A DNA stretch of 64,000 nucleotides, taken from the NCBI RefSeq assembly GCF_029227855.1, contig NZ_CP074356.1; one strand, given 5' to 3'. A program made the position numbers. Below, one piece after another: positions 24,001-30,000 of the stretch (the stretch's first letter is position 1; the number at the start of each line of letters is the position of its first letter). Source of the stretch: Escherichia coli. Its GTDB lineage: Bacteria; Pseudomonadota; Gammaproteobacteria; Enterobacterales; Enterobacteriaceae.

Positions 24001-27000
24001 CGTCTCGTTAGGCGAAATAGAGCGTGCGTTGGCGGCGGGTTACAATCCGCAAACGTACCCCGATGATATTGTTTTTACGGCAGATGTTATCGATCAGGCG
24101 ACGCTTGAACGCGTCAGTGAATTGCAAATTCCGGTGAATGCGGGTTCTGTTGATATGCTCGACCAACTGGGTCAGGTTTCGCCAGGGCATCGGGTATGGC
24201 TGCGTGTTAATCCGGGGTTTGGTCACGGGCATAGCCAAAAAACCAATACTGGTGGCGAAAACAGCAAGCACGGTATCTGGTACACCGATCTGCCCGCCGC
24301 ACTGGACGTGATACAACGTCATCATCTACAGCTGGTCGGCATTCACATGCACATTGGTTCTGGCGTTGATTATGCCCATCTGGAACAGGTATGTGGTGCT
24401 ATGGTGCGTCAGGTCCTCGAATTCGGTCAGGATTTACAGGCTATTTCTGCGGGCGGTGGGCTTTCTATTCCTTATCAACAGGGTGAAGAAGCGGTTGATA
24501 CCGAACATTATTATGGTCTGTGGAATGCCGCGCGTGAGCAAATCGCCCGCCATTTGGGCCACCCTGTGAAACTGGAAATTGAACCGGGTCGCTTCCTGGT
24601 AGCGCAGTCTGGCGTGTTAATTACTCAGGTGCGGAGCGTCAAACAAATGGGTAGCCGCCACTTTGTGCTGGTTGATGCCGGGTTCAACGATCTGATGCGT
24701 CCGGCAATGTACGGTAGTTACCACCATATCAGTGCCCTGGCAGCTGATGGTCGTTCACTGGAACACGCACCAACGGTGGAAACCGTCGTCGCCGGGCCGT
24801 TATGTGAATCGGGCGATGTCTTTACCCAGCAGGAAGGGGGAAATGTTGAAACCCGCGCCTTGCCGGAAGTGAAGGCAGGGGATTATCTGGTACTGCATGA
24901 TACGGGGGCATATGGCGCGTCAATGTCATCCAACTACAATAGCCGTCCGCTGTTACCAGAAGTTCTGTTTGATAATGGTCAGGCGCGGTTAATTCGCCGT
25001 CGCCAGACCATCGAAGAATTACTGGCACTGGAATTGCTTTAACTGCGGTTAGTCGCTGGTTGCATGATGACTTGCCTCCAGCGACGGAGTTGACACTGAA
25101 TGGCGACGTACCAGCGTCGGACTAAAGACATTAGTGATTTCCGGGAGAGGGCGATTATCCGCCAGTGCCAAAGCCAGTTCGGCAGCCTGCGTCGCCATCG
25201 TCACGATTGGGTAACGCACGGTGGTCAGGCGCGGACGCACATAGCGTGACACCAGCACATCATCAAAGCCAATTAACGAAATCTCACCCGGTACATCAAT
25301 ACCATTATCATTGAGAACGCCCATCGCACCCGCCGCCATTGAATCGTTATAACAGGCTACCGCAGTGAAATTTCTGCCTCGTCCCAAAAGCTCGGTCATT
25401 GCCTGTTCGCCGCCGCTTTCGTCTGGTTCGCCAAATGTCACCAGCCGGTCATTGGCCGCAATACCACTTTCAGCAAGGGCATCGTAATACCCTTGCAGAC
25501 GATCTTCGGCGTCAGAAATAGAGTGGTTAGAACACAGATAACCAATGCGGGTATGACCTTGCTGAATTAAATGACGCGTTGCCAGCCAGGCACCGTAACG
25601 ATCGTCCAGAGCAATACAACGGTTTTCAAAGCCAGGCAGGATACGGTTGATCAGCACCATACCGGGCATTTGTTTCATTAATGAGGCTAAATCGGCATCC
25701 GGTATCATTTTGGCATGGACGACCAACGCAGCACAGCGATGGCGGATCAGTTGCTCAATAGCCTGACGCTCTTTTTGTTCGTTGTGGTAACCGTTGCCAA
25801 TCAATAAAAAATTACCAGTGTGATAAGCCACCTGTTCGACCGCTTTCACCATTGCACCGAAAAACGGATCGGAAACATCACCAACGACCAGACCGACCGT
25901 TTCAGTGGTCTGCTGCGCCAGCGCACGGGCGTTGGCGTTCGGGTGATAGCTAAGAGACTCCATTGCACTATGCACAGCAAGCCGTGAAGCTTCGCTGGCT
26001 TTGGGTGAATTATTAATGACGCGGGAAACGGTGGCGACTGAAACGCCTGCCAGTCGGGCTACATCCTTTATGGTCGCCATGAAAATACCTTAGTGGGTAA
26101 ACGCTTACATTCTTTCAGTGTTACGGAAAACGCCCGTTGGTTCAAGGGGTGGCGTGTTTTCATCGTGGGAATGTGAGCCAAACGCAAATAAGTAAGACAA
26201 AAAAAGAGATTGCAAACCTTTGGTTACACTTTGCGAAACGCTGTTGCGATTGACCGCTGGTGGCGTTTGGCTTCAGGTTGCTAAAGTGGTGATCCCAGAG
26301 GTATTGATAGGTGAAGTCAACTTCGGGTTGAGCACATGAATTACACCAGCCTGCGCAGATGCGCAGGTTTTTTTTTGCCGGTCATCAATCTGTAACAGTA
26401 ACCGACAATTTACACACCTCGTTGCATTTCCCTTCATTCCTTTGCGTTTTCTCGCTGGCGAAGAGTCGTCGTGCAGACCACAATCAAGATCCCAGAGGTA
26501 TTGATTGGTGAGATTATTCGGTACGCTCTTCGTACCCTGTCTCTTGCACCAACCTGCGCGGATGCGCAGGTTTTTTTTGTGCACAGAAAACCCCCAGCTA
26601 GGCTGGGGGTTCCGGAAAGCTTTCAGCTTTGAGCCAGTTATTAAAACCCCTTTTGATTTGTTAAAACACTTTGCGGTCTGGCAACTGCAAGTGTCAAACA
26701 AGAAATCAAAAGGGGGTCCCAATGGGGAACGAAAAGAGCTTAGCGCACACCCGATGGAACTGTAAATATCACATAGTTTTTGCGCCAAAATACCGAAGAC
26801 AGGTGTTCTACAGAGAGAAGCGTAGAGCAATAGGCAGTATTTTGAGAAAGCTGTGTGAGTGGAAAAGCGTACGGATTCTGGAAGCTGAATGCTGTGCAGA
26901 TCATATCCATATGCTTGTGGAGATCCCGCCCAAAATGAGCGTATCCGGGTTTATGGGATATCTGAAAGGGAAAAGCAGTCTGATGCTTTACGAGCAGTTT

Positions 27001-30000
27001 GGTGATTTGAAATTCAAATACAGGAACAGGGAGTTCTGGTGCAGAGGGTACTACGTCGATACAGTGGGTAAGAACACGGCGAAGATACAGGATTACATAA
27101 AGCACCAGCTTGAAGAGGATAAAATGGGAGAGCAGTTATCGATTCCCTATCCGGGCAGCCCGTTTACGGGCCGTAAGTAACGAAGTTGGATGCAAATGTC
27201 AGATCGTGTGCGCCTGTTAGGGCGCGGCTGGTAAGAGAGCCTTATAGGCGCATTTGAAAAACCTCCGGCTATGCCGGAGGATATTTATTCGCACCTAATT
27301 TACTGTCGCTCGCGTTCTTTATCTCGTGTAATCTCCCTCCATTCGCTTTTACTGAATCAGAGCAAAGGGAGTTGGAATGCTTTTTAGCTTTTTTCGAAAT
27401 TTGTGCCGTGTTTTGTATCGCGTTCGCGTTACGGGTGACACCCAGGCACTGAAGGGCGAGCGCGTTCTAATCACGCCTAATCACGTCTCTTTTATTGATG
27501 GCATACTGCTGGCATTGTTTTTACCCGTACGTCCGGTATTTGCCGTTTACACCTCAATAAGCCAACAGTGGTATATGCGTTGGCTGAAATCATTTATCGA
27601 CTTTGTTCCTCTCGACCCGACGCAACCTATGGCGATTAAACATCTGGTACGTCTGGTGGAACAGGGCCGACCAGTGGTGATTTTCCCTGAAGGACGAATC
27701 ACCACCACAGGCTCGCTGATGAAAATCTACGATGGTGCGGGTTTTGTCGCGGCGAAGTCTGGTGCAACGGTTATTCCTGTGCGTATTGAAGGGGCGGAAC
27801 TTACGCACTTCAGCCGCCTGAAAGGCCTGGTTAAACGTCGCTTGTTCCCGCAAATTACTCTGCATATTTTGCCACCAACGCAGGTAGAGATGCCGGATGC
27901 GCCGCGTGCCCGTGACCGTCGCAAAATCGCTGGCGAAATGCTGCATCAAATAATGATGGAAGCGCGTATGGCGGTGCGCCCGCGTGAAACGCTGTACGAA
28001 TCTTTACTGAGTGCAATGTACCGCTTCGGAGCCGGGAAGAAATGTGTCGAAGACGTCAACTTTACCCCAGACTCCTATCGCAAATTGCTTACGAAAACGC
28101 TGTTTGTTGGACGCATCCTTGAAAAATACAGTGTTGAAGGCGAACACATCGGCTTAATGCTGCCCAATGCAGGCATCAGTGCGGCAGTGATTTTTGGGGC
28201 CATCGCCCGTCGCCGCATTCCCGCAATGATGAACTACACCGCCGGGGTAAAAGGGCTGACCAGTGCTATTACGGCGGCTGAAATCAAAACCATCTTCACT
28301 TCCCGCCAGTTTCTCGATAAAGGCAAACTCTGGCATCTGCCGGAGCAACTTACTCAGGTGCGCTGGGTCTATCTGGAAGATTTAAAAGCAGATGTCACCA
28401 CTGCCGACAAAGTGTGGATCTTCGCTCATTTGCTGATGCCGCGTCTGGCACAGGTAAAACAGCAGCCGGAAGAAGAGGCGCTGATCCTTTTTACCTCCGG
28501 TTCTGAAGGCCATCCGAAAGGCGTCGTCCATAGCCATAAAAGCATTCTGGCGAACGTCGAGCAGATTAAAACGATTGCCGACTTCACCACCAACGATCGC
28601 TTTATGTCGGCGTTACCGCTGTTTCACTCCTTTGGGCTGACGGTAGGCCTGTTTACGCCACTGCTCACAGGTGCAGAAGTGTTCCTTTATCCAAGCCCGC
28701 TGCATTACCGTATTGTGCCGGAGTTGGTGTATGACCGCAGTTGCACCGTGTTGTTCGGTACCTCCACTTTCCTCGGTCACTACGCGCGTTTCGCCAACCC
28801 GTATGACTTCTACCGTCTACGCTATGTGGTGGCAGGCGCAGAAAAACTACAAGAAAGTACCAAACAGCTTTGGCAGGATAAATTTGGCCTGCGGATCCTT
28901 GAAGGCTACGGTGTGACCGAGTGCGCGCCTGTCGTTTCCATCAACGTACCGATGGCGGCGAAACCCGGTACGGTAGGGCGTATTCTACCAGGAATGGATG
29001 CGCGCCTGTTGTCGGTTCCTGGTATCGAAGAGGGCGGACGCCTGCAACTGAAAGGGCCGAACATAATGAACGGCTATCTGCGGGTGGAGAAGCCAGGTGT
29101 ACTGGAAGTGCCCACCGCCGAGAATGTTCGCGGCGAAATGGAGCGCGGCTGGTATGACACTGGCGATATTGTGCGTTTTGACGAGCAGGGCTTTGTGCAG
29201 ATTCAGGGCCGCGCAAAACGCTTTGCCAAAATTGCAGGCGAAATGGTGTCGCTGGAAATGGTGGAACAATTGGCACTTGGTGTTTCGCCAGATAAAGTCC
29301 ATGCCACTGCGATTAAGAGCGATGCCAGCAAAGGCGAGGCACTGGTGCTTTTCACCACAGATAACGAACTGACGCGCGATAAGTTACAACAGTATGCCCG
29401 CGAGCACGGCGTGCCGGAGCTTGCTGTACCGCGCGATATTCGTTATCTGAAACAGATGCCATTACTTGGCAGCGGTAAACCTGACTTTGTCACGTTGAAA
29501 AGCTGGGTAGACGAAGCGGAACAACACGATGAGTGAGTCAGTGCACACTAACACTTCGTTGTGGTCGAAGGGGATGAAAGCGGTTATCGTGGCGCAGTTT
29601 CTCTCTGCGTTTGGCGATAATGCGCTGCTGTTTGCCACTCTGGCGTTACTGAAAGCGCAGTTCTATCCGGAGTGGAGCCAGCCCATCCTGCAAATGGTGT
29701 TTGTAGGTGCTTACATTCTTTTTGCGCCGTTTGTCGGACAGGTGGCGGATAGCTTCGCCAAAGGCCGGGTGATGATGTTTGCCAACGGCCTGAAGCTGCT
29801 GGGCGCAGCCAGTATCTGCTTTGGTATCAATCCGTTTCTCGGCTATACGCTGGTGGGTGTTGGTGCTGCAGCCTATTCACCGGCGAAATACGGCATTCTC
29901 GGCGAATTAACCACGGGTAGTAAGTTAGTGAAAGCTAACGGTTTAATGGAAGCTTCTACCATAGCGGCGATTTTGCTCGGTTCCGTAGCCGGTGGTGTAC

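Follow-up and report, generated by a model that had tools for sequence, protein, structure and literature searches.

Why should an insertion sequence come to lie at the very last base of a small RNA gene, between that gene and the operon behind it? The question is raised by a 64,000-nucleotide stretch of the Escherichia coli contig NZ_CP074356.1 (assembly GCF_029227855.1), referred to here as the window, in which galR (on the minus strand) is followed by the small RNA (sRNA) genes omrB and omrA, an insertion sequence (IS), aas and lplT. Our answer, to which we assign a probability of roughly 0.78, is that an intact IS200C, oriented like omrA, has inserted directly behind the T tract with which the omrA terminator ends, and that the terminator itself was the target.

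By every criterion open to testing, the element belongs to IS200/IS200C. Its open reading frame at 26722-27180 (152 aa) scores 147.7 bits (cut-off 55, E = 1.9e-43) with the NCBIfam model transpos_IS200 (NF033573), over 124 of the 126 model positions, and the identical DNA in the closest public genome, that of E. coli JNEC-KY178 (100% identity over 1,501 bp), carries the RefSeq name IS200C family transposase (WP_000526135.1). The window copy is also 100% identical to an IS200 copy of E. coli CFT073, and the element matches end to end (1-711) at many different loci in E. coli genomes. It combines the features of the IS200/IS605 family and of its IS200 group: a Y1 transposase, a subterminal hairpin at each end, no target-site duplication and a T-rich target, together with a length of about 0.7 kb, tnpA as its only gene, and a left-end hairpin followed by a stem-loop in the 5' untranslated region. 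Repeat analysis of the element reported no terminal inverted repeats. Membership of this family would imply peel-and-paste transposition via single-stranded DNA (PMC5027513; PMC5934647).

The exact borders of the element follow from a comparison with empty sites. E. coli AF40, whose flanks are 99.9% identical to ours, and the laboratory strain E. coli JB41 both read GCGCAGG-T8-CGCACCTAATTT, the T8 run being TTTTTTTT, whereas in the window the T8 run at 26571-26578 is followed by GTGCACAGAAAA...GGATATTTATT and then, at 27290, by CGCACC. The filled site (T8/IS/CGCACC) against the empty one (T8-CGCACC) reveals no target duplication, and none is present at the omrB site either. The comparison thus delimits the element to 26579-27289 (711 bp), a placement with a latitude of up to 2 nt, owing to the TT at the end of the element. 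Junctions were read straight from the sequences, as MAFFT had aligned the omrA terminator to the similar right end of the IS. In E. coli MG1655 omrA occupies 2976102-2976189 and the aas ATG lies at 2976014; the 87-nt gap between them equals that at 27290-27376 of the window, which places the IS exactly at the annotated 3' end of omrA, whose final base is the eighth T of the terminator tail.

These results bear out much of a preliminary description of the locus, which had proposed from the DNA alone that an IS200 separates omrA from aas; Rfam, NF033573 and the empty-site alignment all agree. Its interval of 26581-27376 was right as to locus but started 2 nt inside the element and took in 87 bp of native DNA (27290-27376). 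The left-end hairpin, said to begin about 10 nt from the omrA T-run, starts at 26589, 10 nt past the last T at 26578; tnpA does point toward aas, the ATG of which is at 27377; and the supposed 80 bp or so between the right end and aas came close to the exact gap of 87 bp. The insertion is strain-specific, as had been stated, given that MG1655 has the 87-nt omrA-aas gap and no IS in it, and the alignment that had been proposed for defining the junctions has its counterpart in the AF40 and JB41 empty sites, which fixed them.

Repeated elements can confuse assemblers, and with about 24 IS200 copies in the source lineage one might ask whether a copy was simply misplaced at the omrA-aas locus. Yet the same junction is found in 8 independently assembled complete genomes from several countries and hosts, 2 of which carry a different IS variant, and the junctions are base-precise relative to the empty sites. 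An assembly artefact is rejected on the evidence of these eight genomes, and its probability is negligible.

The element lies behind what has the marks of an intrinsic terminator, namely a GC-rich hairpin and a T tract at an annotated sRNA 3' end. The omrA hairpin has a predicted energy of -17.6 kcal/mol (z = -3.8); its last two stem bases overlap the T8 run, and 8 nt separate the insertion point from the last G of the GC-closed stem. The idea that the hairpin and T run are part of the element was ruled out: the hairpins differ from site to site, and genomes with an empty site have the omrA terminator as well.

Is this arrangement peculiar to omrA? Twelve other IS200 loci taken from BLAST matches in E. 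coli hold 13 copies, including one tandem pair, and all 13 lie 35-95 bp past the end of a co-oriented gene or tRNA (yggN, deoD, rplS, dsbA, tRNA-Asn, icd, csgA, lom, htpX, emrB, a hypothetical gene and potE). At every one of these loci, the 20-30 nt before the element comprise a GC-rich hairpin and a T run. A wider sample came from species-representative genomes scanned for the exact 22-nt left-end hairpin, which returned at least 120 further stretches from Yersinia pestis, Vibrio ruber, Brenneria, Edwardsiella and Pluralibacter, and from metagenome-assembled genomes (MAGs) assigned to Mailhella, Desulfovibrio, Bacillota, Peptococcaceae and Oxalobacter. Among the matches listed, to which all the following survey figures refer, a hairpin ending within 12 nt of the insertion point (our strict criterion) was present in 116 of 132 distinct left flanks (88%), compared, in the non-coding DNA of the window, with 15% of TTNTT sites and 23% of T5 sites (binomial P ~6e-76). 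With a looser criterion, which permits loops of up to 10 nt and a mismatch in long stems, a GC-closed hairpin with a T tract directly precedes 130 of 135 distinct left junctions (96%), against 17.5% of the non-coding TTNTT sites in the window.

The spacing is equally regular. The distance between the insertion point and the final G/C-closed base of the stem has a median of 7 nt and falls within 5-10 nt in 93% of cases, and T occurs at positions -5 to -1 of the left flank with frequencies of 95, 88, 66, 98 and 97%, which yields the consensus TTNTT (132 sites). At roughly half of the sites the T tract runs on for 1-2 nt past the insertion point, and this overrun fits better with positioning by distance from the hairpin than with positioning by the end of the T run. 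Terminator association, spacing and consensus are therefore properties shown across many insertion sites, and with 96% of junctions behind terminators the placement behind omrA is typical and not a notable coincidence. Tandem dimers add a further kind of target: in E. coli EC16, behind icd, and likewise at several loci of Y. pestis, two copies are joined head to tail, the second abutting the right end of the first, and the right end of IS200 itself serves as the target. In the EC16 dimer (790-2211 of its stretch) the upstream copy has the right end GGATATTTTTT instead of GGATATTTATT. As a separate observation, the exact 22-nt hairpin also occurs in MAGs assigned to Saccharibacteria and Elusimicrobiaceae. 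Across all these MAGs it is found mostly at contig ends, each time with a tip sequence of its own, and this spread suggests either a very wide host range of one IS200 subgroup or contamination during binning.

A pattern of this kind could in principle arise through selection alone, if IS200 entered any accessible T-rich pentanucleotide, the hairpin went unrecognised, and the harmless copies behind terminators were those that survived. Such an account is in keeping with the behaviour of IS608 and ISDra2, which need no more than a target of 4-5 nt (PMC5934647; PMC2806898), with the plausibly minimal harm of insertions behind terminators, and with a preprint (10.1101/2025.07.22.666184) in which terminator-like sequences are reported as over-represented upstream of IS200/IS605 elements and read as limiting transposase expression and aiding the persistence of the element. 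It sits badly, however, with the absence of a hairpin from 82-85% of non-coding TTNTT sites in the window as against 4-12% of insertions, with the narrow distance between stem and insertion point, and with a T tract that is always 3' of the hairpin. Many of the E. coli sites are, moreover, directly upstream of the next gene (csgC, ansB, yihF or aas) and so not obviously safer than others, and the use of the element's own right end in tandem copies also speaks against this account. Selection as the sole cause appears unlikely to us, and we return to the terminator as the target.

How might a transposase single out terminators? On single-stranded DNA a terminator, with its GC-rich hairpin and TTNTT 5-10 nt later, would resemble the right end of the element, which has itself the shape of a terminator: a hairpin and then 9 nt, ATATTTATT, finishing in TTATT. 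The terminator hairpin might accordingly be bound as a mimic of the right end, or might at least present the T tract to the transposase, a proposal that we hold to be slightly better than an even bet. The A-rich stretches just 5' of the two IS200 end hairpins (AGAAAA, GAAAAA) would correspond in position to the guides of IS608, an element that inserts 3' of a tetranucleotide kept in the left flank and whose cleavage sites base-pair with a guide 5' of each subterminal hairpin (PMC5934647). Given T-rich targets (TTNTT, TTATT), the need for a T tract would then fit the IS608 scheme, although both this fit and the assignment of the guide bases are by analogy. The preliminary description had taken the site beside a hairpin as fitting the single-stranded target preference of IS200/IS605; a terminator does precede 96% of the 135 junctions, but the documented IS608 rule is a tetra- or pentanucleotide and includes no hairpin (PMC5934647). 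We infer that the transposase recognises the hairpin, over and above what selection alone would leave behind.

Elements of this family prefer to integrate into the lagging-strand template (PMC5027513). In all eight 8-kb blocks of the window the plus strand has a positive GC skew, which puts the top strand of the copy on the expected lagging-strand template; for a single locus, this amounts to consistency only. In MG1655 omrA is on the minus strand at 2.976 Mb, a position in the replichore read toward lower coordinates.

Extended beyond omrA, the proposal would be that IS200-group transposases use intrinsic terminators as structure-specific attachment sites, the hairpin with its TTNTT being bound and cut, when it is exposed on the lagging-strand template, as a mimic of the right end. 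This would make IS200 a "terminator-homing" DNA transposon across several phyla and a counterpart, among DNA elements, of the group IIC introns. We see the chances of this as evenly balanced. If it is true, recurrent hot spots would be expected where terminators are nearly identical, as with omrA and omrB, and each insertion would stack terminators and the gene of an Hfq-binding antisense sRNA behind a host unit, which in the present case encodes an Hfq-dependent sRNA. Hairpin recognition would also give the guide-only target model of IS608 a structural component.

The frequency of insertions in the galR-aas interval provides a view of such a hot spot. Near-full-length IS200 is present in 2,063 of 5,426 complete E. 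coli genomes, and 42 genomes of this set have a copy within the interval. A junction-specific query found the omrA junction in 8 of the 5,426, while the terminator site of omrB, some 200 bp upstream, is filled in 34, CFT073 among them. The omrB site, which the preliminary description had missed, is thus hit more than four times as often as that of omrA. In the window it is empty (terminator-like site at 26348-26369, reading T9-GCCGG), compared with T8/IS/TGCCGG where it is filled. Two IS200 variants, 96% identical to each other, are each found at both sites, which means at least four independent insertions; the twin terminators have been used repeatedly and independently. The omrA insertion in our strain is probably recent and arose in an IS200-rich lineage, as AF40 has near-identical flanks and about 22 IS200 copies but an empty omrA site. 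In JB41 the single place matched is the empty site, hence this genome has no IS200.

Individual junctions show some variation. In E. coli HCP5S3_I2 the omrA site holds the 96%-identity variant (884-1594 of its stretch) with the junction T8-ATTT/IS/T-CGCACC, which has five nucleotides more than the empty site, ATTT before the IS and a single T after it. At the omrB site the IS follows T7 in ETEC6333 (T7/IS/TTT) and T8 in CFT073 (T8/IS/T; 677-1387 of its stretch), which may reflect either a separate insertion or slippage in the T run. In strains with a filled omrB site the IS stands between omrB and the promoter region of omrA, and could matter for omrA regulation.

Recurrence at one junction may also be a sign of adaptation, the IS being kept for altering the expression of aas-lplT by blocking read-through, by separating these genes from upstream signals or by outward transcription. 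At least two independent insertions at the omrA junction by two IS variants, the strong hairpins added between omrA and aas, and the shared orientation of tnpA and aas would all suit this explanation. The junction is nevertheless found in only 8 of 5,426 genomes, and a preferred target explains its recurrence: since the omrB site does not lie between omrA and aas and is still hit more than four times as often, recurrence would seem to reflect target preference and not selection on aas. The 87 bp upstream of aas are untouched as well, and outward transcription from tnpA is expected to be weak, the right-end hairpin being terminator-like and the tnpA promoter reportedly weak by nature (PMC4513863). 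An adaptive origin is accordingly quite improbable, and preference for the terminator remains the reading that we follow below.

What the insertion has brought to the locus is best seen from the anatomy of the element (Table 1). The left end reads GTGCACAG-AAAA and continues into a 10-bp hairpin of 23 nt, for which 0 matches are expected in shuffled sequence. Its energy is -18.7 kcal/mol on the plus strand and -20.7 on the minus strand, where it is followed by a TTTTCTGT tail; on the plus strand the tail is only TT. Published work describes this hairpin as a Rho-independent terminator effective in both directions, by which tnpA is protected against transcription impinging from outside (PMC4513863). 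The right-end hairpin has an 8-bp stem and -15.9 kcal/mol, and its score is terminator-like whichever strand is read; with the left-end hairpin it forms a direct repeat of 78% identity. The preliminary description's view of the end hairpins as terminators is therefore sustained, on the right by shape and energy and on the left by energy and the published work. A stem-loop at 26647-26715, the 16-nt arms of which are 94% complementary, covers the Shine-Dalgarno region and corresponds to the published translational repressor structure; the same study describes art200, an sRNA antisense to the tnpA leader (PMC4513863). The Rfam model STnc490 matches the tnpA-sense (plus) strand, unlike the antisense art200 (PMC4513863), and the orientation of the model is no guide to the strand that is transcribed.

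Table 1. Features of the window, with positions counted from its first letter.
Feature	Position	Strand	Details
omrB sRNA gene	26294..26375	+	Rfam OmrA-B (RF00079), 86.1 bits, gathering score 40; hairpin and T9 terminator
omrA sRNA gene	26491..26578	+	complete, 88 nt; Rfam OmrA-B (RF00079), 96.6 bits, gathering score 40
omrA intrinsic terminator (predicted), IS target	26551..26578	+	hairpin AACCTGCGC-GGAT-GCGCAGGTT at 26551-26572
IS200C-type insertion sequence	26579..27289	+	711 bp; tips GTGCACAG...GGATATTTATT; from empty-site alignment
Left-end subterminal hairpin	26589..26611	+	10-bp stem, TAG loop; preceded by AGAAAA
IS200 leader	26589..26712	+	Rfam STnc490 (RF01405), full model length, 144.6 bits, gathering score 56
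tnpA, Y1/HUH transposase	26722..27180	+	intact, 152 aa; HIH in ADHIHML, tyrosines in RGYYVD
Right end	27262..27289	+	hairpin CCTCCGGC-TAT-GCCGGAGG (27262-27280) and 9-nt tail ATATTTATT; preceded by GAAAAA
Native omrA-aas spacer	27290..27376	+	87 bp; identical in the AF40 and JB41 empty sites
aas	27377-29536	+	downstream operon
lplT	29529-30722	+	downstream operon; overlaps aas
SctT	349-1116		low-GC block
SctU	1125-2237		low-GC block
PrgH/EprH	3352-4542		low-GC block
EscJ-type ring protein	5144-5878		low-GC block
YgeH, HilA-family regulator	8970-10346	-	low-GC block

Does any of this matter for the genes on either side? The insertion has altered neither omrA with its T8 tail nor the 87 bp that precede the start codon of aas, and the arrangement of omrA and omrB between galR and aas agrees with the gene order of MG1655. 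OmrA would consequently still carry its full T8/U8 tail. It had been suggested that the IS displaces the aas promoter, and this suggestion finds no support: the insertion is at the omrA 3' end, all 87 bp are kept, and a consensus scan of 26100-27500 returned no sigma-70-like promoter. Inspection of the 87-bp spacer by eye offers weak aas promoter candidates at most, and our search of the literature found no report of an aas promoter or start site. Any promoter within the spacer is retained, and because omrA is the only host DNA that has been moved away from aas, loss of a promoter would require one inside omrA. The two extra strong hairpins between omrA and aas would lower any read-through into aas-lplT and would not remove a promoter; insulation is thus the plausible, likelier direction of any effect on these genes, and the net effect on aas is probably near neutral. 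Expression of aas-lplT could fall, however, should it depend on transcription that reads through from omrA. In a read-through transcript the new downstream GTGC can also pair with GCAC at 26546-26549, forming an extra 4-bp helix around the omrA terminator (window 26546-26582) that is probably of no consequence.

Several considerations weigh against our interpretation of the locus and of its wider meaning. The junction set was seeded with one exact hairpin and so represents one IS200 subgroup, the matches listed by that scan include none from Salmonella or E. coli, and many of the MAG junctions fall at contig ends. The hairpin background derives from a single 64-kb window of E. coli DNA, but many genomes contributed to the junctions. 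Selection may contribute to the hairpin association, insertions behind terminators being the least harmful ones, and the IS608 paradigm needs no hairpin in the target, so that hairpin recognition would be an addition to the known mechanism. As for the consequences of the insertion, the terminator activity of the left-end hairpin in the plus direction is taken from the literature and not from the sequence, and the claim of near-neutrality for aas is weakened by the fact that no aas promoter has been located.

Seen by itself, the insertion is of minor importance: it marks a strain of an IS200-rich lineage and leaves omrA and the DNA upstream of aas intact. The feature in the window is an already known element at a typical target, and a link of IS200-type elements with terminators had, in outline, been reported before. 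What is added here is the near-universality of that link (96%), the fixed spacing, the resemblance of the target to the right end, and the twin hot spot at omrA and omrB. For annotators and sRNA biologists, this means that the very 3' end of a transcription unit, an sRNA gene included, is a place where an IS200-type copy can be expected. It also means that repeated independent hits on near-identical terminators can pass for shared ancestry when strains are typed by IS200 position.

Away from this locus, positions 1-15000 of the window form a low-GC block (GC 0.34 versus about 0.52 elsewhere) with type III secretion genes, which is an ETT2-type island. It is presumably more complete than the remnant in K-12.

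How does the element compare with known systems? IS200 and IS200C of Salmonella and E. coli share its length (about 707-711 bp), its single gene tnpA, the left-end terminator hairpin, the leader stem-loop and STnc490/art200; the window copy differs from them only in chromosomal position, behind omrA, and in nothing structural. IS1541 of Yersinia pestis and Y. pseudotuberculosis has the same left-end hairpin and right end, a hairpin-plus-T-tract context in 45 distinct Y. pestis left flanks among the matches listed, and tandem dimers, but differs in its tip (GTGCCCAG as against GTGCACAG here), in its host and in its much higher copy number. Odaert and colleagues are said to have noted, in 1998, terminator-like stem-loops at 8 of 14 IS1541 sites and to have proposed these as hot spots. 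A further IS1541 copy is located between the pheL attenuator and pheA (PMC3082878).

IS608 and ISDra2 have the same Y1 HUH transposase, subterminal hairpins on the top strand and a preference for the lagging-strand template, and they likewise insert 3' of a short target, which stays to the left of the element and is similar to the bases that close its right end. The IS608 guides are AAAG (GL) and GAAT (GR), and IS200 has an A-rich tetranucleotide at the same hairpin foot at both ends. The targets of IS608 and ISDra2, by contrast, are plain TTAC and TTGAT with no reported neighbouring hairpin, whereas IS200 has a hairpin 5-10 nt upstream in 96% of cases; IS200 also lacks tnpB, unlike IS608 and ISDra2. 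From the left tip to the left-end hairpin there are about 10-12 nt in the window element, and the left cleavage site of IS608 is about 19 nt from its hairpin.

Two other kinds of mobile element resemble IS200 in their choice of target. Insertion sequences that target repetitive extragenic palindromes, such as ISPpu9, enter extragenic palindromes able to form hairpins, according to one report (PMC8450116); these have transposases of other families, and they target a specific repeat and not any terminator-shaped hairpin with a T tract. Group IIC (class C) introns, which home behind terminator stem-loops (PMC7923331), are RNA-based retroelements with a reverse transcriptase, without homology to IS200 and with a different chemistry, but in the choice of target they are its closest functional analogue.

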